NCBI GenBank assembly: GCA_003152315.1
Contig: PLZV01000037.1
Location: forward strand, 41,679 to 105,678
Length of the DNA stretch: 64,000 nt
Direction of reading: 5' to 3'
From: Verrucomicrobiota bacterium
Lineage (GTDB): Bacteria; Verrucomicrobiota; Verrucomicrobiia; Palsa-1439
The notes beneath the pieces are model-generated. The model was not told where the DNA came from and did no database searches. It worked only from the letters and a program-made list of their open reading frames with translations. This document shows, one piece after another, positions 163-16,735 of this stretch; position 1 is the stretch's first letter; each line of letters starts with the position of its first letter. The position numbers and the translations under genes were made by a program.

Positions 163-2004
163 ATGCCTGGCTATTTCATTTATTGCCGTAAATCATCCGA
201 AGCCGAAGACCGGCAGGTTCTTTCCATTGAATCGCAAATCCGCGAACTGGAGCAGATCGCCGCCAAGCTCAATTTACCCGTGGCTGAAATTCTGACCGAG
301 TCGAAATCGGCCAAAGACCCGGGCCGCTCGGTGTTCAATCAAATGATGCAACGCCTCTATCGAGGTGAAGCCGTCGGCATCATTTGCTGGAAACTTGACC
401 GTTTGGCGCGCAACCCGGTGGATGGCGGTTCCATCATCTGGGCCATCAAACAGCATGGCATCAAAGTTCTGACCCCAGCCCAAAGTTATGCCCGCGAGGA
501 TGACAACATCATCCTCATGTATATCGAATTCGGCATGGCTCAAAAATACGTTGATGATTTGAGCAAAAACGTGAAGCGCGGACTCAAAACCAAGATTGAA
601 AATGGCTGGTATCCGGGCGTCGCTCCGGCGGGCTACTTGAACCATACGGACAAACTGACGGGTGCAAACAACCTGATCATAGACCCCGAACGCTTTCCGT
701 TGATCCGCCGGATGTGGGACTTGATGTTGACCGGCCTCTACACCCCGCCAAAAATCCTTGAGATCGCCAATCAGCAATGGGGATTCCGCACCCGGTTAAC
801 GCGAAAAATGGGCGGCAAGTCCCTTTGCCGAAGTGCCATCTACCAGTTTTTTACCAAACCCTTCTATTACGGCAGGTTTGAATATCCAGCCGGGAGCGGC
901 CAGTGGTATCAAGGGAAGCACGAACCGATGATTACCGAAGCAGAATATGACCGTGTCCAGACACTGCTTGGGCGCAATGGCAATCCACGTCCACAATCGC
1001 AGCTTGAATTTGCCTTCACCGGCCTCATCCGTTGCGGTGACTGCAACCAGATGGTGACCGCCGAGGAGAAGCACCAGATCATGTGCGGCCATTGCCGGTT
1101 CAAGTTTGCGTATCGCCAGCGCAAGGAATGCCCGCGCTGCCAGATACCGATTGAGCAAATGACGAATCCGCTGTTTCTCCACTACACCTATTACCATTGT
1201 TCCAAAAGCAAACAGCCGGCGTGTCCGCAGAAATGTGTGAGCGTGGTTGAACTGGAAAGGCAGATCGCTGCATACCTTGCCCGTGTCCAGATTTCCGAGA
1301 AATTTAAAGATTATTGCATCAAATTCCTGCATGAGTTGCACGCGAAGGAAAGCACGACACAAAAAACCATCCTTGAAACCCAGCAGAAGGCATATCAGGA
1401 CTGCGCGCAGGAAATTGACAATCTGGTAAGCCTCAAAACATCATCCGGCAACGCTGACGGAAGCCAGCTATCAAACGAGGAGTACGGGCGACGGCGGGCA
1501 ACATTGTTGAAAGAAAAGGCAGCATTGGAGGAGTTGCTTCGGGACGCTGGGCAGCGGATTGAACAACAGTTGAGGCTGTCCGAAAAGACCTTTGATTTCG
1601 CCTGCACCGCCCAGGAGCGGTTTGCCAAAGGCAATGCCAGGACCAAAAAGAAGATGCTGGTGACATTGGGATCGAACCTAACTTTGAAGGACAAAAAGCT
1701 CTTTATTGAAGCCAGGGAACCGTTCTTCATCCTGGAAAAGTCCATGTCTGATGAAAAACCCGGAAACGAGCCTATCGAACCTGAAAATACTGGCCTGTCA
1801 CAAGGACAAAAGAGTGCATACCTCTCCGTGTATCCAAACGTGCTGGGAGGACTGGACGATGTTCGAACATTACGACACAGAAACGAGCATTTGGTTAAGT
1901 CAGTATACCACTTCTTCCAAAGCGTTTGTATGTCTCCTTCGTTCACTTTGTCCGATTGGTTTTATTTATATCACTCCGGCAGCATGGACGATTGGAAGAA
2001 TTGA
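163..2004 (+). CDS. large serine recombinase (resolvase-type catalytic domain + recombinase domain + zinc-ribbon)
   Basis: N-terminal IYCRKSSEAEDRQ motif carries the catalytic Ser in the YxRxSxxxQ context. A Cys-rich zinc ribbon (CGDCNQ...CGHC...CPRC) is followed by a C-terminal coiled-coil. ATG start at 163. Confidence 0.85.
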   Translation: MPGYFIYCRKSSEAEDRQVLSIESQIRELEQIAAKLNLPVAEILTESKSAKDPGRSVFNQMMQRLYRGEAVGIICWKLDRLARNPVDGGSIIWAIKQHGIKVLTPAQSYAREDDNIILMYIEFGMAQKYVDDLSKNVKRGLKTKIENGWYPGVAPAGYLNHTDKLTGANNLIIDPERFPLIRRMWDLMLTGLYTPPKILEIANQQWGFRTRLTRKMGGKSLCRSAIYQFFTKPFYYGRFEYPAGSGQWYQGKHEPMITEAEYDRVQTLLGRNGNPRPQSQLEFAFTGLIRCGDCNQMVTAEEKHQIMCGHCRFKFAYRQRKECPRCQIPIEQMTNPLFLHYTYYHCSKSKQPACPQKCVSVVELERQIAAYLARVQISEKFKDYCIKFLHELHAKESTTQKTILETQQKAYQDCAQEIDNLVSLKTSSGNADGSQLSNEEYGRRRATLLKEKAALEELLRDAGQRIEQQLRLSEKTFDFACTAQERFAKGNARTKKKMLVTLGSNLTLKDKKLFIEAREPFFILEKSMSDEKPGNEPIEPENTGLSQGQKSAYLSVYPNVLGGLDDVRTLRHRNEHLVKSVYHFFQSVCMSPSFTLSDWFYLYHSGSMDDWKN

Positions 2005-2078: not shown

Positions 2079-4625
2079 CTACGGGAGCAGGACACGGTAG
2101 AACCGAGCATTATAGTTTGTCCACTCAGGATCACCAAATAGGACTGTACCATTTGTATTCACGAGCAACGCGGTTGGTATCCAGTCTACTAGGTTCGTGG
2201 AGGTTTCCACGAGATAGTTATAATTGGATGCACCGGCAAACTGCAGAATTGGCGTGTTATTGGTGAGAGATATACCGAGAGTGGGCTGTGTGCTGATGCC
2301 GACAAAGCCAGTCGTCACGTTCGTCACCGTTATGCTCGACGAAGTGATATTGAACGCATCAAGGCGGAAACTGAGTGTATAAAGTCCGTTTGTGACTGTG
2401 CCGGGCAGGGCGAACCGATAGGTCTGTGAACCTGGTGTTTCCACTCTTTCATCCACGATGCCGATTTGATTGGTGTTCCAGTAAACCGTCAGCAATCCCT
2501 GCGCGGTGTTTGTGTCCGTGAAGCCAGCATCAAACTGTACGAAATTTACCGTGGTTGTAATCGTCAGACCGACAGCCAGCCAAGCTGGAGCGTTACTGGG
2601 GCCAGAACTACTGCTATCCAGTGAATGAATTGTGCTTGACTGACTCTGCGGCGAAAACCCCGAAGCAACACTGCTCAAACCTGCGCCACCATTGCCTAAG
2701 AATATTACCCCCGAGGAACTTGTGCCGTTCGGAACCAAAGAGAAATTGATGGTGGAATCAGATCGAACCGGTTGCAGGTTCTGAGACACGCACAACATCC
2801 CACAAAGTGGCAGGGGTGAGTTGTTCCGCGTCTTGGCAGCCCAGTTTCCAGCGCCATTGTCCTCAATGCTCAAAGGAAACCCATAACCTGCTGCGCAACT
2901 CTTTGCAGTGCCATTGACCGTGCTCAGATAGAAATCAATTGGCGAGCCGTGCGAAGAAGAAGGACTGGCGTTGACGTTAATAACTGGAGGGGTCGAATAT
3001 GCGATACCACTGTAATAAACCGGCAATTGCGTGGGAGCTGGGATCGTCCCACCAACATCCACATTGTAAGCCCACTGTAGCTGACCGGATGTAGAGTCAG
3101 CGAATTGTACAGGTCCGTCTATGATGCCGTACAGGACCCCTGCGAGATCCGTTGCATAATCAAATACAAAGTAATTCTCAGCCCAGTCCGCATGCCGGCC
3201 GTATTCGCTTCGGCCTTCCAGAAACTTTCCAGTGTAGGGATCAAGAAATGTCTCTTGAATGACAGGCGGATTTTGTAACTGCTTCAGTTTTTCGGCAATT
3301 GCTTCTATCACAGCCGCGCCGGCACTATGAGCAATCAGATGCACTTGTTTCCACTGGGGCTGCTGGTTCAACTGCAGCCCGTATTGGCTCCCGATATTGC
3401 CCCCTTGAATACGGGCTTGTTCAGGGTCTGGATTGGATGATTCAGATGTCCAGTCTAGCGTCCTGATCTCCCAGTTCGGAGGAACTTCGCTGCTGATCGT
3501 GTTTGCCATCTTGGTGATCCAAGAGATGTCAGAGTCAAAAAAAGACCAGCCATGCGTCACGAGAACCAAACTATCCTTACTAGGCTGTGGAGCGGGGCAA
3601 ATTGGCGCAATAATCTGAGCGGGCTGGTTACCATTCGCTCCGTCAGTCAGAACAGCTAGATACGCGATGGTGCTCGTGACGGAACCTACGGGATTCCAGA
3701 CAGTCAGGGAATAGCCGCCTGAATTAGCTGCTGTCACAGAACTCAAAGTCAACGTGGTATTTGTCGCGACGGGAATGCTCTGCCCATTGAACTGCCACTG
3801 GTAGTTGAGTGGTAGAGCGCTCACAGCGGTTACCGTGAGCGCGACACTTGTTCCAGCTTGAACGGCCTGCCCTTGTGGCTGAACGGTAATCATCGGGGCG
3901 CTTGCGCCCAGTGTATAAAGTTGTCCAATCTCCGTCGCCGACAACGCGCGATTATAGATGCGAACGTCGTCGATCTTGCCGTTAAACCACTCCCACTGCC
4001 CAGACCCGCCGTTTGGATGAGCATGTCCAATGTACAGATCCAAGGTGTTAACCGGAATGCTCCCCACGTTGCCAGTCCCGTTAACAATTCCGTCCAGATA
4101 GACCCATCCATTTGAACCTGACACGACTGCAGCGACATGATGCCACGCTAGGAGGCTGTAGGCTGTTGCCCCAAGGACATTGGGATTGTTTGTGCCCGCT
4201 CCTTGAAGACGCAATGTATGACCGCCAATGCCACTGCCCCACGTGTCAAGGGCAAATCCTCCAGGAGTGCCTGCCAACGCTTTATCTATGATCCTGTATC
4301 CACTTTGCTGTGCCGCGCTTTGGTATATCCAAGCAGATAATGTAAAATTGGAGCTAAGGTGGAGTGAAGTGCTATCGCGAACGTCAATGTATGCGGTTGT
4401 ACCATTGAAGCTGTATGCAGAATTCGTATTCCCAAATCTATCAGACGTTAGTGTTGCATTAAAGACGGTACCGTTATTGCCACTCCCACTCGCGTCGTTC
4501 ACGTTACCACTAAACGGATAGTAAGCGACCAGGCCGGTACTCAAGTCAGCATTTGTCGTTGACACTATGCTCAGGAAGATCAAAAGAGGAACACTCGCAA
4601 AATAACACGCCGTTCTACATTTCAT
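2079..4625 (-). CDS. secreted LamG (concanavalin A-like) domain protein with Ig-like region and alpha/beta-hydrolase (lipase-like) domain
   Basis: Signal peptide MKCRTACYFASVPLLIFLSIVSTTNA. Laminin_G_3-like segment YYPFSGNVNDASGSGNNG. A serine-hydrolase nucleophile-elbow pentapeptide lies within LIAHSAGAAV. Gly/Ser/Thr-rich beta-strand repeats. Confidence 0.6.
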   Translation of the reverse strand: MKCRTACYFASVPLLIFLSIVSTTNADLSTGLVAYYPFSGNVNDASGSGNNGTVFNATLTSDRFGNTNSAYSFNGTTAYIDVRDSTSLHLSSNFTLSAWIYQSAAQQSGYRIIDKALAGTPGGFALDTWGSGIGGHTLRLQGAGTNNPNVLGATAYSLLAWHHVAAVVSGSNGWVYLDGIVNGTGNVGSIPVNTLDLYIGHAHPNGGSGQWEWFNGKIDDVRIYNRALSATEIGQLYTLGASAPMITVQPQGQAVQAGTSVALTVTAVSALPLNYQWQFNGQSIPVATNTTLTLSSVTAANSGGYSLTVWNPVGSVTSTIAYLAVLTDGANGNQPAQIIAPICPAPQPSKDSLVLVTHGWSFFDSDISWITKMANTISSEVPPNWEIRTLDWTSESSNPDPEQARIQGGNIGSQYGLQLNQQPQWKQVHLIAHSAGAAVIEAIAEKLKQLQNPPVIQETFLDPYTGKFLEGRSEYGRHADWAENYFVFDYATDLAGVLYGIIDGPVQFADSTSGQLQWAYNVDVGGTIPAPTQLPVYYSGIAYSTPPVINVNASPSSSHGSPIDFYLSTVNGTAKSCAAGYGFPLSIEDNGAGNWAAKTRNNSPLPLCGMLCVSQNLQPVRSDSTINFSLVPNGTSSSGVIFLGNGGAGLSSVASGFSPQSQSSTIHSLDSSSSGPSNAPAWLAVGLTITTTVNFVQFDAGFTDTNTAQGLLTVYWNTNQIGIVDERVETPGSQTYRFALPGTVTNGLYTLSFRLDAFNITSSSITVTNVTTGFVGISTQPTLGISLTNNTPILQFAGASNYNYLVETSTNLVDWIPTALLVNTNGTVLFGDPEWTNYNARFYRVLLP

Positions 4626-4911
4626 AGTCCCCTCGCAATTGTTACTCCAACTATTCCTGGCCTCGCACAGACTTGGCGCTCTGGACCCCGAGAAGGAAGG
4701 CTCCTGAGTTTTTCAGCCTGACTGGTCGCGAGTATGCCCCGTCCGACATTGAATTCAAGTCAATTTTCCGACTGACGGCACGGAATCTCCCTTGCGCCGG
4801 CTGACTTTCCGACAGTTGTAACCTAGGGAAGGACGGCCTACATACATGGTATGTAGGGGCCAAGGCCCGTCACTACCAGACTGCCACGGCTTAACCGCCG
4901 CACCACGGGCT

Positions 4912-5065
4912 CCCCAACGTGTCGTCGGCTACCGCCCGACTTTTCTTGACGCTTTTCCCCTTCGGGCTAACCGGATAATGGACGCCTAGCCGTTGTCCCT
5001 TATCTAAAATCATCAAGAAAAGTCGGGCGGACCGGATTATCATCCTAGCCGACGACACGTTGGGG
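4912..5065. repeat. 38-bp perfect inverted repeat (arms 4912-4949 and 5013-5065, right arm interrupted by a 15-nt insertion) enclosing a 63-nt loop
   Basis: The reverse complement of ccccaacgtgtcgtcggctaccgcccgacttttcttga equals tcaagaaaagtcgggcgg + tagccgacgacacgttgggg. Flanked by ct(a/g)ccgcaccgaca direct repeats at about 5088 and 5174 and a second imperfect inverted repeat (4951-4967 / 5125-5146). Confidence 0.8.
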
Positions 5066-5331
5066 GACTGGTTTTAAGATAAGGTGCTACCGCACCGACA
5101 ACCACCCCGCTACCGCGACCGGTTCGCCCCGAAGGGCGGAGAAAAGCGTGCCGCGAACGCGGCATTTAGGACACTGCCGCACCGACAGGTGCGTCCTCGT
5201 TTCCGCCGCAACTGGCAAGTTTAGGCGTCTTCTTTTCCACCCTGCTAGTCTCGTATCCTGTCAGCACGGGATCATTCGGATCTCAAAACCAGCCACCATT
5301 ACCTCGTCGGCTGCCCCAAAACCATCTGCCG

Positions 5332-6699
5332 ATGCGACCACAACGGAAGTCCAATACACGCCGGATTTTCACTGCGGCAGGAGTGGTGACTGGTTTTGGC
5401 ACCATGAATGACCACACTATCACAATCGGTGAACGCGAGGGCTGGGGTAAACCCCAGCTTTTCGGCATATCTGCCATTGACCAGCGCCAGCACATCTACG
5501 TCATCGGAAAAACTGGTTCTGGTAAGACGACATTGCTGCGCAATTTGATTTTGCAACATATCGCCCTTGGACATGGAGTCGGTTTGATTGATCCCCACGG
5601 GGATTTGGCCGAAGAACTATTGAACCATATTCCTCCGCATCGTGCCGATCATCTAGTATATTTCAATCCGGGCGACATCGAGTTTCCCATAGGGCTTAAT
5701 TTGCTCGCCAATGTCGCCCCCGACGACCGCCATCTCGTGGCCTCGGGCATTGTGAGCGCGTTCAAGGGCATTTGGCGCGACTCATGGGGTCCGCGTCTGG
5801 AATACATCCTGTACAATGCCGTATCGGCACTTCTTGATTGCCGGAATGCCACCCTTTTGGGCGTCAACCGTATGCTTACGGATGACACATTCCGGGCCAA
5901 GGTGATTCGGCAGAGCAAAGACCCATTCATCCGAGCGTTTTGGGCAGAGGAATATGCCGGATACGACGAGCGTTTCAAACGGGAGGCCATTGCACCGATT
6001 CAGAACAAGCTCGGCCAATTCCTCTTGAATCCAGTGGTCCGCAACATTCTCGGCCAGGTCAAAGCGAAGGTGAACATTCCGTTCGTGATGGACAACCAGC
6101 GTCTTTTCATCGCCAATTTGTCCAAAGGCAGGCTTGGACACGACAAAGCAAACTTGCTCGGCTCCCTGCTTACGACTCAATTTCAACTTGGTGCCATGGC
6201 ACGAGCAAACCATCCCGAAGAAGAACGGCGTGACTTTTACCTTTTCATTGACGAGTTCCAGAACTTTTCCACCGATGCGTTTGCTTCGATTCTTGCGGAA
6301 GCGCGCAAGTATCGTCTTTGTTTGACCCTTTCGCATCAATACATAGACCAGCTCCCACTGCCGATTCGTCAGGCGGTCTTTGGCAACGTAGGGACGCTCA
6401 TTGCCTTTCGCATCGGCAGCACCGATGCCGAGGTGATGGAAAAGGAGTTTGGTAATACGATCCCCGCAAGCGTCCTTGCCGACCTTGACCGCTATGAGGC
6501 AGTGGTGAAATTGCTCGTGGAGGGAAGCAACCTCGAATCGTTCCGGGCTAAGATGCTTCCGCCATTAGAAAATCGCATCGGACGGAAGGGCAAACTCATT
6601 GCACGATCACGCGAGCGATTCTCCACTCCGCGTACCAAGATTGATGAAAAGCTGAGTCGGTGGATGGGTGGACTGATTGTACCGAAAATCGACGGGTAA
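5332..6699 (+). CDS. VirD4/TraG/TraD-like P-loop ATPase (coupling-protein-type, FtsK/HerA superfamily), no TM anchor
   Basis: Walker A VIGKTGSGKTTLL, then GLIDPHGD, and Walker B FYLFIDEFQNFST (LDEFxxL-type, as in T4SS coupling proteins). Paralogous to the core of the 20931-24035 protein. An alternative start at 5404 is possible. Confidence 0.65.
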   Translation: MRPQRKSNTRRIFTAAGVVTGFGTMNDHTITIGEREGWGKPQLFGISAIDQRQHIYVIGKTGSGKTTLLRNLILQHIALGHGVGLIDPHGDLAEELLNHIPPHRADHLVYFNPGDIEFPIGLNLLANVAPDDRHLVASGIVSAFKGIWRDSWGPRLEYILYNAVSALLDCRNATLLGVNRMLTDDTFRAKVIRQSKDPFIRAFWAEEYAGYDERFKREAIAPIQNKLGQFLLNPVVRNILGQVKAKVNIPFVMDNQRLFIANLSKGRLGHDKANLLGSLLTTQFQLGAMARANHPEEERRDFYLFIDEFQNFSTDAFASILAEARKYRLCLTLSHQYIDQLPLPIRQAVFGNVGTLIAFRIGSTDAEVMEKEFGNTIPASVLADLDRYEAVVKLLVEGSNLESFRAKMLPPLENRIGRKGKLIARSRERFSTPRTKIDEKLSRWMGGLIVPKIDG

Positions 6700-6720
6700 G
6701 GGTTGGCACGCCGCAGTCAT

Positions 6721-7266
6721 TCATACAGCAGCGCGCTGTGTGGTTTCGTCAAGGCGGCTGTATTCCGAGCCATTGTGCGCACTGACCCAGAGTTCAAGTC
6801 TTTCCATCTGATTTCCAACAATCGTCATGATAAAACAATCTAGTTCGTGCTGAGATTTACGAAAGGCATCTGCCATAGAATTCAAGTCCAACCGAGACGG
6901 TGTCGGTTTCGGTTCCGGATGAGTGTGCCATTCACCGATAAAATGCAACCCCTTATCAAAATATTGTCTAATGAGCCGTCGCTGCAAAATCCGATTCGGA
7001 ATGAACAATGTCCTCCACCGTTTATCGGCCACGTTCGGAGGAGAAGCTTCGACTACCAGAATCAACGGAAAGTCAAATTCTGCAAAGAGAAGCCCGCCAG
7101 CTTCTGGTTCGTCTTCTTTTTGGCGATATGTTGAAAAGATTTCTAATGCTTTCCTAGTCACAATAAGCTCTTGTTTGGAATGTGGAAAAGCAAAGCGGCG
7201 TGAATTTAAGAATTTTTCTGAGCGCATACGCCGCAAGTATTTGATTTGGTCCAATTTTTTCGGCAT
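6721..7266 (-). CDS. JAB/MPN (JAMM) metallopeptidase, Cap3-like deubiquitinase-type
   Basis: Complete JAMM motif: upstream Glu (EAGGLLFAEF) plus EWHTHPEPKPTPSRLD (HxHx7Sx2D). Overlaps the upstream E2-E1 gene, consistent with operon coupling. Confidence 0.8.
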   Translation of the reverse strand: MPKKLDQIKYLRRMRSEKFLNSRRFAFPHSKQELIVTRKALEIFSTYRQKEDEPEAGGLLFAEFDFPLILVVEASPPNVADKRWRTLFIPNRILQRRLIRQYFDKGLHFIGEWHTHPEPKPTPSRLDLNSMADAFRKSQHELDCFIMTIVGNQMERLELWVSAHNGSEYSRLDETTQRAAV

Positions 7267-8993
7267 ATTCTTGAATAGCCAGTACGGCTAACCTCCGGCT
7301 TCCACATTTCTGTGAGATTGGCTTCCACCGATTTAAAATGCTCAGCGCTACTGATCCAAGTATTTAGAAAAGAATCTGGAGAAGGGCTAAGGAGTGATTC
7401 AACGACAATAGACGCAATCATCGAGGCAACCGGCATTAATGCAGTCGGACCATAATGCTGATAGTGGGTGCATCCACCAGGTTCTTTCGAAAAGGGTGTT
7501 TTTCCAAAATCAGCTACTGCCTGACTGAACCGTCCGAATTCATTTGCAGCGCATTCAAAACATCCACCGTTCGGTCCGACAACCAAGCAATGTCCTGCTA
7601 CAGCATGCGGTTCGAGCCAACCCAAAACCAACGGGGACATTTGTATTTTACGTGACAATTCGTTCAACGGGCGCTCACATCGCCACTCACCAGTGGTTGA
7701 GACTACCAAATGGTATTCCGCGAAAAGATTTGGATTAGACCTGAATATATCTCTCCAATCTTTGGGAATGCCTTTAATACTCAGATGAGGCATCTCACGC
7801 GTTAATTCTTCGGCGAGGGCTTCGGCCTTCGAACGTCCTACAGACGACGCTCCCAAGATATGCCGACCAAGATTCTCCCAACCAAGATTGTCATTATCTG
7901 TCAATGTGAGATGGCCGATACCCGCACGACTTAAAAGATGAGCAACATATCCACCCAATGAACCGCATCCGATTAACAAAACAGATTTTTTGGAAAGGTC
8001 TCTGCCATCGCCCCCTCTCGAATGAATCCACTGGTGATCGACCCGACAGACAACGCGTCTTATTACGGCATTGGAGGCAAGCATTCCTACAGCACGTTTG
8101 CGCAATAGATCCGCCGGAATCTTTTCTAAGCGGAAGCCGCGAGTGATCTCAGGTGACTGTCGTAAGTGCCCAAGCACAGGAAAAATAACGCCTCCCAACG
8201 TCACCCCTTCACTTTCCTTTTGAATAAGCAGGACGAGACCTTCCTCAGAACCATTTGCGACGTGTTCTTTTATCAGGTCAGCAACTGAAGAGTCGTTAGT
8301 CCCTGCAAGGGTCAATAAGTCTCTCAGCGCGTTCGGGTAGTCGCCGGGAAGTAGTGGGGGATTCAAACTAATCGCCAAACCAAGCCTGCTCGCTTTTAGT
8401 TCAGAGGGTTTCCCTGTGTGATTTAAAATCCAGCTGTTTATTCGTTCCATCGATGAAGCGACACAAATATATTCTTTGCAGAAGACAACGACAAAACGTT
8501 TGCCAAGTTGTTCCGGTGGATCAATTAGGACAATAGATTGGTCCTGGAGTGTTGCCGAGCGATTCCAATAAGAAGTAAATTCATCACGAAAATCAAGCGG
8601 GTCTGTTCCTTTCAGAATCTTTTCGGCATCATCAAATACGTAACGAACAATGGCTGCCGGGTCCTTGCTGTTAATTGCCGCCGAATTCGGGATAGTACAG
8701 ATAAAACCACGTGCATCTATATGCGGATTTTTAAATACGAGATCTCTCGCATCGGCAATGCAGGCGATAGGGGCTTCATCGGGAAAATCCCGAGGAAGCC
8801 CCACATTTACGATCCATTCCTTATCCAAAATGCGGAACGATTTTCGCCACACAGTAGGACATTCAGCCAGGAGCTGCGGAGCATCCTTTGCTGATACCAG
8901 CTCAAATGCTGAATCCGTGGCCAAATCGGCTTGGACCGCTTCAAGGGCGTGATGAAGGCGCTCTCGCAAAAAGTTTTGCGATTCATCACCCAT
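7206..8993 (-). CDS. E2-E1 fusion protein (N-terminal UBC-like E2, C-terminal ThiF/MoeB-like E1), Cap2-like
   Basis: E2 signature FKNPHIDARGFICTIP (an HPN-like NPH followed by a catalytic Cys). E1 Rossmann LLIGCGSLGGYVAHLL plus TDNDNLGWENLGRH. Zinc motifs CFEC ... CGVC. ATG at 8993 with a GGAGG ribosome-binding site; an alternative GTG sits at 9008. Confidence 0.8.
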   Translation of the reverse strand: MGDESQNFLRERLHHALEAVQADLATDSAFELVSAKDAPQLLAECPTVWRKSFRILDKEWIVNVGLPRDFPDEAPIACIADARDLVFKNPHIDARGFICTIPNSAAINSKDPAAIVRYVFDDAEKILKGTDPLDFRDEFTSYWNRSATLQDQSIVLIDPPEQLGKRFVVVFCKEYICVASSMERINSWILNHTGKPSELKASRLGLAISLNPPLLPGDYPNALRDLLTLAGTNDSSVADLIKEHVANGSEEGLVLLIQKESEGVTLGGVIFPVLGHLRQSPEITRGFRLEKIPADLLRKRAVGMLASNAVIRRVVCRVDHQWIHSRGGDGRDLSKKSVLLIGCGSLGGYVAHLLSRAGIGHLTLTDNDNLGWENLGRHILGASSVGRSKAEALAEELTREMPHLSIKGIPKDWRDIFRSNPNLFAEYHLVVSTTGEWRCERPLNELSRKIQMSPLVLGWLEPHAVAGHCLVVGPNGGCFECAANEFGRFSQAVADFGKTPFSKEPGGCTHYQHYGPTALMPVASMIASIVVESLLSPSPDSFLNTWISSAEHFKSVEANLTEMWKPEVSRTGYSRICRKNWTKSNTCGVCAQKNS

Positions 8994-9354
8994 GCCGACC
9001 GCCTCCACGAAGATCTACCGGACTTGTAGGCGTCTGACGTGCTATGCCCGCGTCGCGGTCAGCAATTTTGCAATCAACACACTCTGGCTGTTCCAAAAGG
9101 TTGTCGTTCGGCTTCCCATCTGCGTGAGATCGAAGAAACGGAGGTTTGCCATTTTCTCGCACCACCAATACTTCGCACTCCTTGCCCGTCGTTTTGTCGA
9201 TTGTATAAAAACCCGCTTTCTGGTTTTCGATGAGAAAAATGGCGTCTTCGCGTGTAAATCGCCATTTTTCCTGGAGATTGCCGACATGCGTGATATGCTC
9301 ATGAGGACTGTGATGATGAGGCTTATTAATACAAGTTATTTGATATTTTTTCAT
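8986..9354 (-). CDS. small His-rich protein with disordered C-terminal tail ending LRGG-GRHG (candidate ubiquitin-like conjugation substrate or precursor)
   Basis: ATG at 9354 with an aggaag ribosome-binding site. Sequence MKKYQITCINKPHHHSPHEHITHVG... ends ...TSPVDLRGGGRHG. Its 3' end overlaps the E2-E1 start by 8 bp. Similarity to any DUF family is uncertain. Confidence 0.55.
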   Translation of the reverse strand: MKKYQITCINKPHHHSPHEHITHVGNLQEKWRFTREDAIFLIENQKAGFYTIDKTTGKECEVLVVRENGKPPFLRSHADGKPNDNLLEQPECVDCKIADRDAGIARQTPTSPVDLRGGGRHG

Positions 9355-9533
9355 GACGTTCGGCTTCCTATAGTTTTTGTTCGGTTGAACTACTTGCGAG
9401 CCTTGACACCTCTCGCGGTTTATTCGCGATACAGTAAGACTTCGCAAAACAGTATGTCAAGCCATCTTTTTGCGAATTTCTTCTGGACAAAACGTCCTTA
9501 GGACTTTAAAAAGCAACATGAAATTATTAAGCC
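9355..9533. promoter_or_regulatory. divergent promoter/operator region between the conjugation-like operon and the HTH-peptidase pair
   Basis: 179-bp AT-richer intergenic region. It contains a perfect 9-bp inverted repeat ttcgcaaaa-N17-ttttgcgaa (9441-9475), a ttgaca -35-like hexamer (about 9398) and short cgcgag/ctcgcg palindromes. Confidence 0.4.
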
Positions 9534-9935
9534 ATGAATTCCGTAGGTGAGCGAATTAAGGCCCGTCGGCTGGAACTGGGGTGGACCCAAGAAGAGTTGT
9601 GCAAAAAGGCAAACATCAGCACAGGCTTTTTATCAGATCTTGAAAATAGCAAGCGTAGTGTAAGCGCCGAAACACTTCTAGGCATTGCGCACGTGCTTTC
9701 GCTCAGTCTCGATTATTTAATGAAGGGCGATTCAACACAAATTCAAACAGCACAAGTTCAATTCCCTGCGAATTTGGCCGAACTTGCAAAGACAGAGAAC
9801 ATCTCGTTCGTCCAAGCCTTGACCGTTTTAGATATGAGAATGCAAATCGTTGCTCACCGAAGCGTGTCAAAATCGGATGACTTGGAGAATTTTGATTGGA
9901 AGAAGTTTTACGATTCGGTCAAAGAGTTCTTATGA
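9534..9935 (+). CDS. XRE-family helix-turn-helix transcriptional regulator (CapH/ImmR-like)
   Basis: N-terminal HTH_XRE signature GERIKARRLELGWTQEELCKKANISTGFLSDLENSKRSVSAETL. Overlaps the downstream peptidase start by ATGA. Confidence 0.8.
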   Translation: MNSVGERIKARRLELGWTQEELCKKANISTGFLSDLENSKRSVSAETLLGIAHVLSLSLDYLMKGDSTQIQTAQVQFPANLAELAKTENISFVQALTVLDMRMQIVAHRSVSKSDDLENFDWKKFYDSVKEFL

Positions 9936-10987
9936 AAAAACTGGATAGCGAATACGAGATCCACAAGCTGGCGGCAGGGCTGAAAGTCGATTGGCAGCAA
10001 AATGCTGTGCAAAATATCATTGCTCTATGCCACGACAAAATCTCTAAATGGACCAAGGGAATTTCTAAAATTCGATCTATCCAAGAACTAGAAGTGCTGG
10101 TTTGCGAAAAGGTGAAATTGGTCTTTGAAGAGATTTACAGAGAAGACGACCTAAAAGCAGTCATCCGAAAGTATGTAAGTTTGGGTGAACCGATTTTTTC
10201 CACGCTTAAAACCGACTTGGACGAGAAGACTTTTGCAACTCTAATTGAAAGACGTAGAATTGATGGCAATTCACAAGATCGATATGTGGCAGTCATTGAT
10301 TGCAGAGGAAGTAAGGCACCGCGGCGCTTTTTTTCGCGATGGCATGAAATTGCTCATTTACTAACACTTCAAGGCCAGCTTCAACTTCCTTTGCATCGTT
10401 CCACCACGGATCGAAGTCCTACGGAAAGACTGATGGATACGATTGCTGGAGAAATCGGATTTTATGATCCTCTTTTCCGCCCTATCTTACGTGATGAAAT
10501 TGCAAAGGAAGGTGGCTTCGCCTTTACCACGGTCGAAAGAGTCAGAGGCCGATTTTGCCCGGAGGCCAGCTTTCAGGCGACGTTAAATGCGTGTGTTAAT
10601 CGGCTTGATGTGCCCATGCTTCTGGTGGAAATTGGTTTGGGGTATAAGAAGGAAGAAGAAAGGCAAATATTTTCTTCCCAGACAACTCTATTTTCTGAGG
10701 CACATCCGAAACCAAAGTTGCGAGTTTCGACAATAATAGGCAATGATAGGGCTCGCGGCACTTCGTTAAAGATTCACCGAAATATGCAGGTTCCTGCCGC
10801 CTCCGTGTTACATCGTTTCTTTTTCAAAGAAGACGATCTCCCCGCAAAAGAGCTAGAGGGTTTTGAAAACCTGAACATATGGCGGCACTCGGACGGCGGA
10901 GCGCTTGCAAACCTTTCAGTTAGAATTCGAGTTCGTCGTTTCGAAAGTTCAGTAATTGCGTTAATTTCGCCGGCGAGGCTTACCTGA
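9932..10987 (+). CDS. ImmA/IrrE-family zinc metallopeptidase (COG2856; CapP/ImmA-like)
   Basis: HExxH motif within RWHEIAHLL. ATGA overlap with the upstream HTH gene gives the canonical HTH plus ImmA-peptidase two-gene module. Confidence 0.75.
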   Translation: MKKLDSEYEIHKLAAGLKVDWQQNAVQNIIALCHDKISKWTKGISKIRSIQELEVLVCEKVKLVFEEIYREDDLKAVIRKYVSLGEPIFSTLKTDLDEKTFATLIERRRIDGNSQDRYVAVIDCRGSKAPRRFFSRWHEIAHLLTLQGQLQLPLHRSTTDRSPTERLMDTIAGEIGFYDPLFRPILRDEIAKEGGFAFTTVERVRGRFCPEASFQATLNACVNRLDVPMLLVEIGLGYKKEEERQIFSSQTTLFSEAHPKPKLRVSTIIGNDRARGTSLKIHRNMQVPAASVLHRFFFKEDDLPAKELEGFENLNIWRHSDGGALANLSVRIRVRRFESSVIALISPARLT

Positions 10988-11009
10988 TATCTCTGGCGGC
11001 GAAGAAAAA

Positions 11010-11090
11010 CAGGGCGGCTGCCTCCCCAGTTTTCCTCTCGACACCTTTTCCTCTCCCGCCTCGCAGCTACCCAGATGGATCGTCTTGGGC
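11010..11090. repeat. copy 1 of an ~80-bp GC-rich imperfect direct repeat
   Basis: gggcggctgcctccccagttttcctctcgacaccttttcc...gctacccagatgg versus copy 2 gggcggctgccgccccagttttcctctagacgcctttccc...gctacgcagatgc, about 80% identity. Confidence 0.7.
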
Positions 11091-11223
11091 TGCATACGCT
11101 GGGGCTTCACCCCACCTTCGCTACGTCGACCCCCCGGACCCCTTCGACGGCGCAGGCGTTGTTCCGCCCCGCTCCTTCCGCCCAATCCGACCACCAGGGC
11201 TTAACGCTGCTACCAGAGGAACA

Positions 11224-11305
11224 CACGGGCGGCTGCCGCCCCAGTTTTCCTCTAGACGCCTTTCCCCCACCCGAGGCGCGGCTACGCAGATGCTCGCCCC
11301 GTCTG
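11224..11305. repeat. copy 2 of the ~80-bp GC-rich imperfect direct repeat
   Basis: See copy 1. The two copies are about 215 bp apart in a roughly 520-bp noncoding gap. Confidence 0.7.
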
Positions 11306-11508
11306 CGCTGGCAGGCGCTACACGACATCACCTACCGCTTGCCATGACGAGCACCCGCGCTTCACGCCGCGACGGATTGGGATGCTCCCGCCACCGGGAG
11401 CAGCAAAACAAGCTTCGACCATCCACAGACCCTTAAAATTCACTATAGACTTTAAGCTATTTAGAACGCTTTCGAGTCTTGTAAAAGTACGTAGAATAAC
11501 CAAGAAAC

Positions 11509-12585
11509 CTATGCACCGGCCATGATGGCCGCACGCGTCTTCGGACCGACAATGCCAGTCTGACTGATATGGTGACCTTTCTGATACTTCATAATCGCAG
11601 CCTCAGTTAAACTTCCAAAAAGCCCTTTCACATTACCGGTCGGTATGACCAAAAATCCTTTTTCTACAAGGAATGTCTGCACGGCGCTTACATCGCTGCC
11701 GGTATCGCCAATGTGGAGATCATGCGTCAGCACCAGCGAAGCTGAAGCGGTAGGGGCGACAACGCCTCCCGTGTCGGCAACAACGGCTGCCTCTGTCAAC
11801 GGACCGGCTGTGCCAGTAGGAGTGATCCGCCTTGTGCGCTGATAGCTCTCTACCGCCGTCCTGGTAAGCAAGCCGTAAAGACCATAGGCAATGCCGGCTG
11901 GCATGTTGAGAAGCCCTTTACTGACCAGGAACTTCTGCAATGCAGTGACATCGGGGCCACTATCGCCGACTTGGAGATTTCGAGAGTATGGGGAGCTTGG
12001 TCCACTGACGACTGGTGCAGTAGAGGGTGTGCAGGTCAATCCTGCGGGGCAATTCGACACCGAAGGAGCATTCAGGGAATTAAGATACGCCGTGGTAGAA
12101 GCCCCCGGAGCGAGAAGAGTGGCAAGCACGCTTGGCGAGACAGAGCCACCACCTATAGAAACACTTCCACCACTGGATTCTGGCGGAGGCGGCGAAGGTG
12201 GGCTTGAATTTGCACAAATCGTAGCTGATGGAGTGATCGTATTCGTGACTGTGCTACCGCCGGAATATGAAAGCGAGAGGGTCGAAGCGGAACCCGTGCA
12301 CACGTTTGAAGTGACATTAGACTGCACGTCAGTCGATAACTGGTTCAGAGTCGGAGAAGAGACGGTGATAGAGGAGCCAGAAGCAAGTGTCACTGTGAAA
12401 TTAGATGCATTGACGGTGATAGACTGGATGACGGCGCTTGAGCCGGAGATGTTCAGGGTATAGCCGCCGACGAGAATGTGGACATCCGTGGTCAGTGATA
12501 CATCGTTGAAGGCGGCAAGGGCTATAATAGGAACGAAGAACCCAACTAGGATAATCGTTGATAGTTTAGATATTTGGTGAGACAT
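11509..12585 (-). CDS. secreted protein with Ig-like Ser/Thr-rich region and two C-terminal peptidoglycan-binding (PG_binding_1) domains
   Basis: TM/signal segment, then two repeats of the type LQVGDSGPDVTALQKFLVSKGLL...GLYGLLTRTAVESYQ and LHIGDTGSDVSAVQTFLVEKGFL...GLFGSLTEAAIMKYQ. The most likely ATG is at 12585; the ORF track extends to 12648. Confidence 0.6.
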   Translation of the reverse strand: MSHQISKLSTIILVGFFVPIIALAAFNDVSLTTDVHILVGGYTLNISGSSAVIQSITVNASNFTVTLASGSSITVSSPTLNQLSTDVQSNVTSNVCTGSASTLSLSYSGGSTVTNTITPSATICANSSPPSPPPPESSGGSVSIGGGSVSPSVLATLLAPGASTTAYLNSLNAPSVSNCPAGLTCTPSTAPVVSGPSSPYSRNLQVGDSGPDVTALQKFLVSKGLLNMPAGIAYGLYGLLTRTAVESYQRTRRITPTGTAGPLTEAAVVADTGGVVAPTASASLVLTHDLHIGDTGSDVSAVQTFLVEKGFLVIPTGNVKGLFGSLTEAAIMKYQKGHHISQTGIVGPKTRAAIMAGA

Positions 12586-12598
12586 AATCTGCTTGCGG

Positions 12599-13945
12599 CT
12601 AATACGTAGGGAACCCCGACAAATCAACCGGCGTGAGCGTTTGTCCACCGAGACTCGTTATGGCGGCGTTGATAGCCGATATATTACCCACTATATCCGA
12701 CGCTCCGTCAGGAAAATAACCCGATTTGTAATACCATGTCCCCAACGCAACGGCCTGTCCATTGATGACCATCAAAATAGGAGAGCCACTGTCCCCCGAG
12801 GCTATGGGCAAGTACCAACCCGCATACTGGCTCGTATTCGGGGAATAGATGTACTGCCCCGGCTGAATGATGGCAACAACGTCGCTGTCGAATGCCACAG
12901 CCGATCCTATGCTCAGACTTCTGTATTGATTCGTGAAAAGAACGAGCGGATGTGCGTAAGAAATGGCAGCTTTCGTCATCTTTGTCCCGTCTGTTCCATC
13001 AGAAATGCCGACACTACCCGAGGCGAATACTTTCGCCGGTGTGATTCCAGAAGGAACGGCTGACGAGAGCTTCATCACTTGTATGTCCACGCCGACATGA
13101 GCGCTTGCAGTGATGGTCCTTGAAACGGTCGTGTTGTCATTCTTGACGAAATAAACCGTGGTGCCATTCGGTATATACGCGTGATTGGATTGGATCAAAA
13201 TATCAGGAGTCACGAGGATCCCATTAAATCTGGCACCCCCATACGGATTGCTTCCGGTCGGTGGAGGGCTGTCCCAATCGCTCCAAACGGGAATAGCGGT
13301 CAGGTCGACGGCACCAGTAAAGATGTTTGGATTTCTGGTATATACGTGATTGACATCATCGGTCGAGGAGTAGATGTTCTGCGTGCTTGCCGACGGCGTC
13401 TTGCCTGAGATCATGGCACTGATCTCGCTGAAGATGTCGCTTCCGAGCGATCCCGATACCAGGCTGTTAAAAATCGTGTTGTACGAATTATGGGTGTGCA
13501 ACATCGGGCATTCGATGCCGCGTGTAAGCCGGCCAATCGTAACCCCGAATGTTGCAGTGCCGTCGCCGACATACGACACTACGCCATTGAAATCCACGGT
13601 GCCGTAGGACGGATCTTTGGCGCTGAAAATAGGCGTGACATTATCAGCGCCAAGCACGGTTAAGACGCATGAATATATGACGCTGCCCGAATTATAGAAA
13701 TTATATACGACATCATTTGTGTTGATCGTACCGTTTGATGAACCCATGGTGATCGTACTTGACGATGTGCTGGCAATAGAGAAATCCTCTATTTGCGCTC
13801 CGCTCAAAGCAGAACCGAAAAGCTGCGGGGCAGTGGTTGTCGCAACGCTCGTATAGTGTATCGTAAAATAAGCCTGCGCATTGCCATGAACCAACAGTGA
13901 GAAACCGACTGCGACAACACATCTTATTATGGTCTTCATTCTCAT
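12599..13945 (-). CDS. secreted trypsin-like (S1 family) serine peptidase
   Basis: Signal peptide MRMKTIIRCVVAVGFSLLVHGNAQA. Canonical GDSGSP active-site serine motif in the C-terminal domain. Confidence 0.65.
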   Translation of the reverse strand: MRMKTIIRCVVAVGFSLLVHGNAQAYFTIHYTSVATTTAPQLFGSALSGAQIEDFSIASTSSSTITMGSSNGTINTNDVVYNFYNSGSVIYSCVLTVLGADNVTPIFSAKDPSYGTVDFNGVVSYVGDGTATFGVTIGRLTRGIECPMLHTHNSYNTIFNSLVSGSLGSDIFSEISAMISGKTPSASTQNIYSSTDDVNHVYTRNPNIFTGAVDLTAIPVWSDWDSPPPTGSNPYGGARFNGILVTPDILIQSNHAYIPNGTTVYFVKNDNTTVSRTITASAHVGVDIQVMKLSSAVPSGITPAKVFASGSVGISDGTDGTKMTKAAISYAHPLVLFTNQYRSLSIGSAVAFDSDVVAIIQPGQYIYSPNTSQYAGWYLPIASGDSGSPILMVINGQAVALGTWYYKSGYFPDGASDIVGNISAINAAITSLGGQTLTPVDLSGFPTY

Positions 13946-13946
13946 G

Positions 13947-15578
13947 CTATTTTATGAGAGTCCACGGTTCGGAACCCATGCACAACCACAAATGATGGTT
14001 CGCTTTGTTATAGACGCTCGTCCCTTCAAGCGTCGAATTGCAGGTGAATCCGGTGGATGTTGACGTAACGGCTCCGCGATAACCGCCGTTTATATCGACG
14101 CCAACTGAAGGCGCGGGATTACCAACGCCTATTTTGCCGCCATCAAATACAATGATATTGGGAATATCACCAGATTGTTGATCTCCAGTGACAACGCTAT
14201 TGGTAAATATGAAGTCACCGCCTTCTCCATTCTGGAATAGCATTATTCCATCCCCAAGTTGGAGATCACCAGAACTATCTTCGGACGCTATCCTTTGCGT
14301 GTCAGCGAAACCACTACTGGGAGTGAGATGGTCAAATACTATTCCACTACTATCACTGCTCAAATTTATACTACCTGTGCTTGTCAAAGTAGTTCCAGTA
14401 ACTGTATCTGCCGACGTAGTTCCATTATATGTCGCCGTCGTTCCACTCAATGACCACAGTCCGAGCGGATTCAGATTTGCAACTGTCTGCGAGCCATCGC
14501 CTATTTTCCCGTGTTTCGTGTCAGTCTCATAAACCATCTCGCCTGCTGCGGGTATTATGCCGGATAAGGCTGAGGCGGTTCCTTCTCGCGGAATAACAGC
14601 GGCATTCAAGTTTCCGCTGCTATCAAGGAGCGTATTGTTGCCGATTTTGATCGTGCCACCCGGCGCAAGGGTGAGGCTCGGCGCAGTCAGCACAGTCCCG
14701 TCAAATGTGAAGCCGGCATTACTGCCAAAAGAACCGCTTGCATTGAACTGCACCGTGCCCGAAGCCGCGGCAGGGCTAGTCGCGCCGCCCCCGCCGCTCG
14801 ACAGACATGTTCCATTTACGGCAAAGCATCCGGCGGCGATATTGATGCCGTTCCCGACCGTGGAGGTCGCGGAGGAACCGGTCAGATTGAGATAGGTTCC
14901 TTGTATTCCACCAGAAAACGTCGTTGTGCCGGTGTTGGAGAATGCCTGCAAGCCGGTAAATGTATTCGCGGTGTATGCCTTCGGGATAGTCGATGAACCA
15001 TTGATATATGAATTGACATCAGCGTTTGTGTAATTTGCTGATCCACCGCCGACGCACGAACCGTTTATCGAGAAACACCCTCCGGTCAGATTGATACCGT
15101 TCGCAAAGGTGGAACTGGCTAATGAGGACGTGATATTGAGCAGAAGCGTCTGGAGCCCTCCGGCAAATGTCGAAGTAGCTGTCGATGAAGTAGCCGTGTA
15201 GGATGCGGCTGTGGGAGTCCCTGTGGCAGTCAGCGTCGAAGAGTTGATCCACGAAGAGAGCATGCCGGCCACGCCGCCCGACAGACTACCGCCTCCGCTT
15301 CCTCCGACGCACGAACCGTTTATGGAGAAACAGCCGGAAGTAAGATTCAATCCGCCGGCAAAGGTCGAGGTAGATACATTGGTTGATGCCAGATTCGTCA
15401 CCGTGGTCGTACCGGCTGAGAGCGTGCTTCCAAGCGTTGCCGCTCCGGAAACATTGAGCGCACCGCCGGTGACGATGTCGGTGCTGATCGTGGTCGCGGC
15501 AAAAGCACTGTGAACAACCAAGATAGAGAATACGACAACTACAAAGGTTGTCGAGATGACCTGTGTATATGGCTTCAT
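13947..15578 (-). CDS. secreted Gly/Thr-rich repetitive protein with recurring Cys-containing motif (fiber/adhesin-like)
   Basis: Signal/TM segment, then at least four repeats containing G(C)F(S/A)(I/V)NG(S/T)C(V/L)(G/S)G embedded in T/S/G-rich beta-repeat sequence. Confidence 0.55.
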   Translation of the reverse strand: MKPYTQVISTTFVVVVFSILVVHSAFAATTISTDIVTGGALNVSGAATLGSTLSAGTTTVTNLASTNVSTSTFAGGLNLTSGCFSINGSCVGGSGGGSLSGGVAGMLSSWINSSTLTATGTPTAASYTATSSTATSTFAGGLQTLLLNITSSLASSTFANGINLTGGCFSINGSCVGGGSANYTNADVNSYINGSSTIPKAYTANTFTGLQAFSNTGTTTFSGGIQGTYLNLTGSSATSTVGNGINIAAGCFAVNGTCLSSGGGGATSPAAASGTVQFNASGSFGSNAGFTFDGTVLTAPSLTLAPGGTIKIGNNTLLDSSGNLNAAVIPREGTASALSGIIPAAGEMVYETDTKHGKIGDGSQTVANLNPLGLWSLSGTTATYNGTTSADTVTGTTLTSTGSINLSSDSSGIVFDHLTPSSGFADTQRIASEDSSGDLQLGDGIMLFQNGEGGDFIFTNSVVTGDQQSGDIPNIIVFDGGKIGVGNPAPSVGVDINGGYRGAVTSTSTGFTCNSTLEGTSVYNKANHHLWLCMGSEPWTLIK

Positions 15579-15877
15579 TGGTCTTATAGGGTACGATTAA
15601 AGAAACGACTGATTTGTAAGAAACGTACCAGTTATTGTAGCACTTCTTGTGTTGTGTATTATCCCCAGATTTGATGCGGTGTAAGCGGGTGCCTCCCTTC
15701 AATATCATCACGGATAGCGAGATACGCATAAGCAAAGGAGGAAGTCATTCTCACAACGGCCAGCGACTTGCATTAAAGCGCAAACCTTGACGCCTTCTTC
15801 GTTTGCTCCCTCTCCGGCAAGGTGGAGCGATGGATTCCCGTCTTCCACGTTTCAAACGCACCACCACCGTTGCTCGC

Positions 15878-16735
15878 ATGGCACTGACGGAGCGCGACCG
15901 CCAAATCATCCGGCTCGTTCACCGGCATCGTTTTCTCCGTTCTCCGCAAATTGTCGCCTTGATCGGCGGCAGTTCGCAGCAGCTTTTGCGACGATTACAA
16001 TTGCTGTATCACCATGGATATTTGGAACGCCCACGCGCCCAGATTGATTATTACCACCAGGGCGGCTCCCGCCACATCATCTACGGTTTAGGGAATAAGG
16101 GAGGGGGGATGTTGTTGAAACAAGAACTTGGTGTTGCTTTTCGTGAATTCTCATGGGGCGAGAAGAACCGCGCCGTTGGCCGGATGTTCCTTGAACATGC
16201 GCTCTTAGTCTCGGATGTGATGGTGACGATTGAACTTGCTTGCCGTGAGCGTGGAATTCGGCTCGTTACCGAGAGAGAACTTGTGCTTCCCGGCAAGCAC
16301 CAACCGTTCCGGTGGAGAGTGAACATACACAACCACGTGAAACTTGGCGTCATCCCGGATCGCGTGTTCGCCTTGGAACTTCTCGATGCCAGCGGCTCAA
16401 GCCGGCGGGCATATTTCTTTCTTGAAGCTGACCGGGGCACGATGCCGGTCACGCGTCGAAATCTTTCCCAGACTTCCTTCTACCGCAAGCTCCTCGCCTA
16501 TGAAGCAACCTGGACGCAAAACTTGCATCGCATACGTTTTGGTTTCCATCGCTTCCGCGTGCTCACCGTCACCACCAGTACCGCGCGGGTGAAGTCACTT
16601 GTAGATGCCTGTTCACAATTGGAACGCGGGCATGGACTCTTTCTGTTTGCCGACCGGACAATTTTGTCTGGTGATATGTTTTCCTCGATATGGCAGACCG
16701 GCAAGCCGGGCGAAACCGGCAGTTTGTTGGATTAG
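15878..16735 (+). CDS. replication-relaxation family protein (plasmid/ICE type)
   Basis: N-terminal winged-HTH-like LTERDRQIIRLVHRHRFLRSPQIVAL typical of the replication-relaxation family. The ORF track extends to an upstream ATG at 15803. Confidence 0.6.
   Translation: MALTERDRQIIRLVHRHRFLRSPQIVALIGGSSQQLLRRLQLLYHHGYLERPRAQIDYYHQGGSRHIIYGLGNKGGGMLLKQELGVAFREFSWGEKNRAVGRMFLEHALLVSDVMVTIELACRERGIRLVTERELVLPGKHQPFRWRVNIHNHVKLGVIPDRVFALELLDASGSSRRAYFFLEADRGTMPVTRRNLSQTSFYRKLLAYEATWTQNLHRIRFGFHRFRVLTVTTSTARVKSLVDACSQLERGHGLFLFADRTILSGDMFSSIWQTGKPGETGSLLD

Follow-up and report, generated by a model that had tools for sequence, protein, structure and literature searches.

A strand-specific multi-hairpin element beside VirD4-like ATPase genes of Verrucomicrobiota: a candidate origin-of-transfer region

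What function is served by the highly structured intergenic region upstream of a coupling-protein-like ATPase gene in a Verrucomicrobiota bacterium (assembly GCA_003152315.1, contig PLZV01000037.1, positions 41,679 to 105,678; these 64,000 nucleotides, the whole stretch of DNA analysed, are called the window below)? The gap that holds this region measures 778 bp (4626-5403 in window coordinates) and is flanked by a minus-strand gene for a secreted Laminin_G_3 protein and by the ATPase gene at 5404-6699. An earlier note on this DNA had described a perfect 38-bp inverted repeat with a 15-nt bulge, a second inverted repeat and iterons, and had named an origin of transfer (oriT) or an attachment (att) site as candidates. 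Based on the conservation, covariation and gene context set out here, the oriT part of that proposal is the best supported, and we lean modestly towards predicting that the element is the oriT region of a Verrucomicrobiota integrative mobilizable or conjugative element; the minus strand would be the one transferred, and a single-strand priming site may be included. The family of mobile elements in question appears to be undescribed, and its relaxase is apparently of the MobC type.

The 38-bp repeat was borne out, with 4912-4931 pairing with 5046-5065 (20 nt, 100%), 4932-4949 pairing with 5013-5030 and the interruption lying at 5031-5045. Within the window each arm sequence, with up to three mismatches allowed, is found only at these two sites (0 of 100 shuffles), and the repeat with its 15-nt bulge is real and far above chance. 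Folding had been proposed as a check and was run; the region folds far better than shuffled controls, with z-scores of -8.8 (plus strand) and -8.0 (minus strand) for 4880-5200 as RNA and -10.9 for the minus strand of 4836-5200 as DNA. A structured region had been claimed for 4880-5190; the structure stands and the extent does not, as the conserved element reaches 4836-5193 and has the following parts.

4836-5147, minus strand: core multi-hairpin element, matched by covariance model R1 over all 303 positions at 279.9 bits; further hairpins follow to about 5193, and the whole element is about 310-360 nt
4838-4856, minus strand: hairpin H0, CTACATAC-ATG-GTATGTAG, where conservation sets in on the left; 5 of its 8 pairs are changed on both sides, with U-G wobble on the minus strand
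4857-4868, minus strand: hairpin H0b, which in the window reads GGGCC..GGCCC; the minus strand of most relatives has GGGC-GNTA-GCCC
4886-4901, minus strand: hairpin Hn, in the near-invariant stretch ACGGCTTAACCGCCGCACCAC, 6-7 nt 3' of the big hairpin (minus strand)
4912-5065, minus strand: the 154-nt long hairpin
4912-4924/5053-5065: outer stem of the long hairpin, 13 bp, invariant in close members
4925-4940 / 5022-5030 plus 5046-5052: imperfect middle of the long hairpin
4941-4949/5013-5021, continued by 4953-4956/5006-5009: inner stem of the long hairpin
4950-5012, minus strand: apical domain of the long hairpin, with conserved blocks GGGCTA, CCGG, CTAxCCG and TGTCCTTTA
5031-5045, minus strand: side hairpin (the '15-nt bulge'), GGAT-TATC-ATCC in the window, absent in a short variant
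5066-5082, minus strand: conserved single-stranded linker GACTGGTTTTAAGATAA, containing ACTGGTTTT, which recurs in the ATPase leader
5083-5096, minus strand: hairpin H4, GGTGC-TACC-GCACC (c-GGTA-g on the minus strand), which holds the first 'iteron'
5107-5118, minus strand: hairpin H5, CGC-TACC-GCG; closing pair U-A 40 versus U-G 31 on the minus strand
5125-5138, minus strand: hairpin H6, CGCCC-CGAA-GGGCG, with a TTCG loop on the minus strand; 5 of 5 pairs changed on both sides
5149-5164, strand not assigned: hairpin H7, GC-rich, with an A-rich run 5' and a T-run 3'
5178-5193, strand not assigned: hairpin H8, CGCACC-GACA-GGTGCG, the second 'iteron', predicted in the DNA fold

The covariance model R1 (minus strand, 303 positions, 71 pairs) finds every close member of the family at 149-313 bits and also finds the divergent members L078 (69 bits), L042 (61 bits) and L050. 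In L042 the element is kept though the ATPase is only 49% identical, and the synteny of ATPase, relaxase and primase is kept as well. When the 71 base pairs were counted in a 102-sequence alignment of homologues, standard pairs filled 93.5% of cells and 45 of the 71 pairs showed changes on both sides; the covariation score was 0.254, compared with 0.090 for shuffles (0 of 500 reach 0.254) and 0.03-0.05 with slid partners. The many hairpins of the element are kept by compensatory changes.

Within the long hairpin, the inner stem shows three to four Watson-Crick pair types per position, and in L042 and L078 an A-T pair of the outer stem is replaced by C-G, a compensatory change. The long repeat is imperfect in most relatives: one arm, which reads GTCGGGCGGTAGCCGACGACACGTTGGGG on the minus strand, is invariant, and the middle of the other varies. 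Because this variation is uncompensated, the perfection of the repeat in the window is not a conserved feature. Sequence-specific recognition is supported by the invariance of the outer stem and of one arm, since neighbouring pairs covary. The 15-nt insertion is present as the earlier note had described it; however, it is no plain bulge, being itself a conserved covarying hairpin (GGGC-TATC-GCCC and GAAC-TATC-GTTC in relatives, with GGCC/GGCC also found as the stem). A covarying-column scan of the apical domain for an extra helix or pseudoknot, which was too permissive, gave no clean helix, and a GGNTA/TAGCC pairing considered there was rejected as showing no covariation.

The smaller hairpins behave in the same manner. 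Pair 77/96 of H4 occurs as UA 41, GC 28, CG 14 and UG 11 times; the H7 stem is found as GCCGCG/CGCGGC, GCCCC/GGGGC and CGCCC/GGGCG; and H8 covaries with CGCG-CCGACTGG-CGCG in relatives. The stretch that holds Hn is invariant in the 28 loci found via the ATPase, and its stem covaries in divergent members (CGGC/GCCG, GGCTC/GAGCC, AAGC/GCTT). On the minus strand a c-GNTA-g loop is common to four to six of the small hairpins, and nowhere else in the window do such hairpins cluster. In about 40% of relatives the 8 nt that follow H7 contain at least four T, and from its sequence this hairpin looks like a bidirectional terminator that would separate the element from the ATPase promoter region.

These hairpins also account for the features that had been taken as iterons. 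The 14-nt direct repeats exist (5087-5100 and 5174-5187, sharing the 11-mer CCGCACCGACA exactly at 5090 and 5177, with a related ACCGCCGCACC at 4894), but they are the 3' half of the hairpin at 5083-5096 and the 5' half of that at 5178-5193. The second inverted repeat is likewise present in the window, at 4949-4960/5138-5149 (12 nt, 92%), and is probably incidental because it is not conserved in relatives. The pentamer CCGAC/GTCGG occurs six times in 4836-5200 and has a family mean of 4.6 per 330 nt versus about 1 in shuffles, an excess that is partly due to the stems themselves.

Which strand folds can be read from the mismatched pairs. On the minus strand, non-Watson-Crick cells are G·T in 216 cases and A·C in 40, in 25 versus 10 pair columns, and an alignment-independent count of the inner stem gives 46 G·T versus 3 A·C. 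For a site acting as a duplex the expected ratio is about 1:1, since transitions strike the G and the C of a pair with the same likelihood in both arms; the G·T excess therefore indicates that the element is selected to fold as a single-stranded minus strand. As all transfer genes in the window lie on the plus strand, the strand under selection for folding is their template strand. The greater folding stability of the minus strand (106 of 110 sequences) was rejected as evidence, since base composition by itself gives the strands of shuffled controls a difference of about 16 kcal/mol, and automatic hairpin picking per segment was set aside in favour of the covariance-model alignment after giving noisy and partly contradictory wobble counts.

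This polarity bears on the simplest explanation for a structured block upstream of the ATPase gene and on the same side, namely that it is a plus-strand 5' leader of the ATPase mRNA or regulates this mRNA like a riboswitch; H7 and its T-run could then serve as a plus-strand attenuator. The wobble is that of the other strand; downstream of the element lie a distinct covarying stem in the leader (5284-5298/5384-5398) and a -10-like box, which reads TATCCT (5254-5259) in the window and TGCTAYGAT in relatives; a different gene follows the element in one locus (L194, described below); and in several loci cargo or an insertion sequence (IS) lies between element and ATPase gene. We regard a leader of this kind as scarcely credible. 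The earlier note had itself named a plain 5' untranslated region as the result that would undo its proposal, and this is unlikely given the wobble polarity opposite to the ATPase strand and the terminator-like hairpin and -10-like box that intervene.

An ATPase promoter downstream of the element is a weak call, as a good -35 box was not found. The call is based on the -10-like and extended -10 boxes, and TTGGCA was rejected as the -35 box, its spacing to the -10-like box being inconsistent. The leader stem covaries from CCAGTCGCC/GGCGACTGG to CCAGCCGCC/GGCGGCTGG; the end of its 3' arm is 6 nt short of the ATG at 5404. Three copies of the 9-mer ACTGGTTTT are present, in the element linker (5067-5075), in the 3' arm of the leader stem and, inverted, in its 5' arm; the stem and the 9-mer could provide translational control or an operator.

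The earlier note had suggested a search beside homologous ATPase genes, and the element is indeed conserved alongside them in other genomes. The ATPase has more than 8000 relatives (84-95% identity among the matches listed). A scan of species-representative genomes with it returned 80 loci, mostly from Verrucomicrobiota (Limisphaerales), and window positions 4833-5141 were recovered at 72-83% nucleotide identity in about 30 of the 80, immediately upstream of the ATPase gene. An exact-pattern scan of metagenome contigs added 120 further loci with one copy each. The element is thereby known from about 150 loci of Verrucomicrobiota (149 analysed for neighbours), always as a single copy per contig, as in the window, which rules out a repeat element of the miniature inverted-repeat transposable (MITE) or repetitive extragenic palindromic (REP) type. 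Because the exact-pattern scan of viral contigs gave 0 matches, the element is not phage-borne. Conservation stops abruptly on the left, the sequence beyond about 4833 not being conserved. In 97 of the 149 loci the ATPase gene lies downstream of the element, the median distance from the left-arm start being 499 nt. On the upstream side the neighbours vary, with two families of plus-strand open reading frames (ORFs) of about 590 aa in 11 of 72 and 10 of 72 loci; one family includes the recombinase of the window (its relatives were confirmed in five loci), and the upstream genes show a weak orientation bias, with 46 on the plus strand and 25 on the minus strand.

Some observations on individual relatives may be added. 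Five loci (L003, L013, L026, L034 and L056) come from metagenome-assembled genomes (MAGs) labelled Saccharibacteria, Bifidobacteriaceae, Akkermansia and Betaproteobacteria, with an ATPase 82-94% identical to that of the window; L003, L013, L034 and L056 carry the element at 254-309 bits, and in L026 the covariance model found no copy, blastn matching the leader block only. The occurrence of such ATPases under these labels could reflect mis-binning or real transfer. Among L043-L080 are many MAGs of Patescibacteria (the candidate phyla radiation, CPR) with ATPase relatives at 37-50% identity, beside which R1 found no copy of the element. Many metagenome contigs (L081-L200) end inside or right beside the element, which is consistent with assembly forks at a boundary between conserved module and variable cargo.

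The genes that accompany the element in the window are as follows.

163-2004, plus strand: large serine recombinase, upstream of the element
5404-6699, plus strand: VirD4/TraD-like ATPase, 431 aa (Pfam TrwB_AAD_bind 8e-11 and TraG-D_C; NCBIfam TraD and VirD4-like models)
6721-7266: JAB protein, in a cargo hotspot
7206-9008: fused E1-E2 protein, in the same hotspot (PADLOC E = 2e-138; no cyclase nearby)
15803-16735, plus strand: Replic_Relax (PF13814) protein, a putative MobC-type relaxase (Pfam E = 4e-22), synteny kept
16866-17894, plus strand: DnaG-like primase, kept 3' of the relaxase in relatives
18440-19489, plus strand: ArdC-like protein, kept 3' of the relaxase in relatives
20931-24035, plus strand: TraD/VirD4-like ATPase, 1034 aa
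24374-25864, plus strand: large serine recombinase, flanking the module

The order of ATPase, variable cargo, Replic_Relax protein, primase and ArdC is conserved in relatives, and two unknown proteins lie between ArdC and the 1034-aa ATPase in the window. PF13814 is the MobC relaxase superfamily in CONJscan (PMC5357655), and MobC relaxases have a PD-(D/E)XK fold. The relaxase of the window had no informative match in the PDB and, by tblastn against plasmids, only one weak match in Bradyrhizobium, of uninformative context. A single-copy non-coding site beside relaxase and coupling-protein genes, within an element that also carries a relaxase (here the putative one of the Replic_Relax family), is what would be expected of an oriT. 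A compact arrangement was found in L194 (4176-8728), which holds the element, about 100 nt with a TTGCCA..TGGCAA palindrome, Replic_Relax, one minus-strand ORF and a serine recombinase, with no ATPase. The element is the only conserved non-coding block beside the relaxase in this locus, which by its gene content is a minimal layout of putative oriT, relaxase and integrase.

The cargo hotspot of the window (6700-15800) lies between ATPase and relaxase, and in several other loci the relaxase gene is directly 3' of the ATPase gene. Besides the JAB and E1-E2 genes it holds genes for a DUF3892 protein, a helix-turn-helix (HTH) protein, a peptidoglycan-binding protein and a Mtd_N-domain protein. The 431-aa ATPase also matches mad8, a PADLOC model for the MADS defence system (E = 1.7e-19), a better value than that of Pfam TrwB_AAD_bind. 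Two tRNA genes (38883-38964 and 39152-39225) coincide with a step in G+C content from about 0.55 to about 0.60 near position 39000, which may mark an island or insertion boundary.

The geometry of the minus strand may also fit an oriT. In the standard oriT arrangement, the template strand of the transfer genes carries a hairpin with a conserved stretch 3' of it, and these genes enter last (PMC11541004); on the minus strand of the element the long hairpin lies 6-7 nt 5' of the near-invariant GGTGCGGCGGTTAAGCCG. Under the oriT interpretation, the minus strand would be the transferred (T) strand, and the invariant arm and outer stem would let the relaxosome recognise the 154-nt hairpin. The nick would fall within or close to the conserved stretch that lies 3' of the long hairpin at a spacing of 6-7 nt, with Hn (4886-4901) as the candidate nick region. 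The DNA would then leave 5' to 3' towards the side of the variable cargo and recombinase, while the hairpin and the transfer genes would enter last, and the refolded hairpin could serve termination and re-ligation. The small c-GNTA-g hairpins may stay folded in a strand coated with single-stranded-DNA-binding protein and act as landmarks for the HTH domain of the relaxase or for the DnaG-like primase of the element, which might itself start the complementary strand.

The serine recombinases offer another explanation, since two of their genes flank the module and the region is palindromic: it could be the att site at which one of them acts. This is very improbable for four reasons. First, the element is intact in about 150 integrated copies, while an attP site would be split on integration. 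Second, the att site of a large serine recombinase is a duplex of about 50 bp, and the element, at no less than 310 nt, is six or more times longer. Third, the recombinase genes lie at no fixed distance from it, the interval, which holds cargo, ranging from about 1 to more than 4 kb. Fourth, strand-specific wobble indicates selection on a single strand and not on duplex half-sites. Few loci carry the second recombinase, too few for comparing the right end of the mobile element, where an att site would lie.

A second alternative keeps the single strand and dispenses with the nick. In this case the element would be solely a single-strand origin (sso) or single-strand initiation site (ssi), in which the folded minus strand recruits RNA polymerase or the DnaG-like primase for synthesis of the complementary strand and the nick site lies elsewhere. 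The element fits the description of an sso as orientation-specific, extensively folded single-stranded DNA (ssDNA) whose structure is conserved, here by covariation; the mobile element encodes its own primase; and the repeated c-GNTA-g hairpins are clustered in this one place. However, an invariant outer stem and a long invariant arm point to a recognition of sequence and not of structure alone, the compact L194 needs an oriT and has no other conserved non-coding block beside its relaxase, and the element has none of the -35/-10 boxes of RNA-polymerase-dependent sso or Frpo elements (PMC11541004). A promoter of the Frpo type in ssDNA is ruled out by the same missing boxes: no -35/-10 hexamers were found within the hairpin stem, and the TTGACG at 4946-4951 is found in the window but not in relatives. 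We regard priming as the sole function of the element as distinctly unlikely; as an additional function it is plausible, being compatible with the oriT interpretation and not exclusive of it.

The element could also act as RNA. A minus-strand non-coding RNA (ncRNA) of about 310 nt, divergent from the ATPase gene and needed for mobilization or regulating it, would account for the strong covariation, for a G·U wobble that belongs to the minus strand and for loops that read UUCG and GNUA on that strand, and it has a precedent in Salmonella genomic island 1 (SGI1), which needs a small RNA (sRNA) encoded between a relaxase-like gene and the oriT (PMC9299015). Several findings nevertheless make it unlikely. 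No sigma-70-like promoter was found on either strand in 4600-5450, and no conserved promoter for either strand; right of the element, where the RNA would start, there is no conserved or consensus promoter, and past 4836 no terminator, conservation ending at the last hairpin. Read on the minus strand, the would-be RNA is closely preceded by the terminator-like hairpin at 5149-5164. At gathering scores, Rfam 15 recognised only the two tRNAs elsewhere in the window, and with E-values up to 10 it gave two chance-level matches near the region, so that no Rfam family applies. Lastly, a 13-bp invariant helix and a 30-nt invariant arm would be unusual in an RNA whose neighbouring helices covary freely.

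Other points weigh against the oriT interpretation itself. No complete set of mating-pore genes was recognised within the window, and blastn gave no match in 72,556 plasmid or 50,697 phage records. The recognition of oriT by MobC relaxases is poorly known, and a geometry borrowed from HUH relaxases may not apply to them. The nick region that we assume forms a covarying hairpin of its own, and divergent members vary in it. The covarying hairpins, at least nine in number, exceed what an oriT typically needs and fit a single-strand origin or an RNA equally, and strand-specific G·T wobble cannot separate ssDNA from RNA. It is also worth raising, as a less likely possibility, a new single-strand-specific module in which five or six c-GNTA-g hairpins surround a 154-nt branched hairpin, acting either as a large minus-strand mobilization RNA or as an ssDNA landing pad for the primase or the PD-(D/E)XK relaxase. 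If this were so, it would be an undescribed way for conjugative elements to recognise the DNA that they transfer.

A site of this kind is known in principle, while its architecture is unusual and more elaborate than had been seen at first reading. To our knowledge, no oriT has been described for MobC-type (PD-(D/E)XK) relaxases outside Firmicutes and enterobacterial plasmids, and we know of no description of this Verrucomicrobiota element family; both are our own assessments, with no dedicated literature search behind them. The more than 8000 close relatives of the ATPase come from soil, peat and freshwater metagenomes. A delimited cis site with helices mapped by covariation gives a handle on substrate choice by the relaxase and on the transferred strand, as well as on the boundaries of the element family and its cargo hotspots, that of the window carrying an E1-E2/JAB defence module. 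If the c-GNTA-g hairpins are landmarks for primase or relaxase, they would represent a new recognition principle.

Four kinds of known system invite comparison. The sgm-sRNA of SGI1 is a demonstrated RNA with mapped promoters and is essential for mobilization (PMC9299015). The Verrucomicrobiota element resembles it in a non-coding function near a relaxase-type gene and differs in having no evident promoter or terminator, in being several times larger and in having no sequence or Rfam relation to it. Frpo/ssi elements are long imperfect hairpins of a few hundred nt, formed by the transferred strand near oriT (PMC11541004). The element is likewise a long imperfect hairpin region of a few hundred nt, but it has no -35/-10 hexamers and its conserved stem CCCCAACGTGTCG bears no likeness to a promoter. 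In ICEBs1, sso1 consists of three stem-loops, is orientation-specific and lies beside the relaxase gene, structure outweighing sequence (PMC4595007). Like this site and the sso of rolling-circle replicons, the element is strand-specific, has several stem-loops conserved in structure and lies near the relaxase of an integrative element; unlike them, it has no sequence relation to them or promoter-like boxes and contains long invariant stretches besides its structure, and the mobile element has its own primase, so that priming may not depend on RNA polymerase. The closest likeness in gene content is to class 8 of the streptococcal integrative mobilizable elements (IMEs), which combine a VirD4 coupling protein, a MobC relaxase and a serine integrase (PMC5357655), and the Verrucomicrobiota element carries a VirD4-like ATPase, a PF13814/MobC relaxase and a serine recombinase. 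As in these IMEs and in other elements with MobC relaxases (pAD1 with TraX and oriT2, and CloDF13), a non-coding block rich in inverted repeats lies beside such genes. The oriT2 of pAD1, studied by Francia and Clewell in 2002, reportedly has an inverted repeat of about 140 bp together with short direct repeats, an architecture similar to that of the 154-nt hairpin with its CCGAC repeats. The Verrucomicrobiota element differs from the known MobC elements in the phylum of its host and in a relaxase distant from its plasmid relatives, and from their oriTs in sharing no sequence similarity with plasmids and in its greater number of hairpins with a repeated c-GNTA-g loop.

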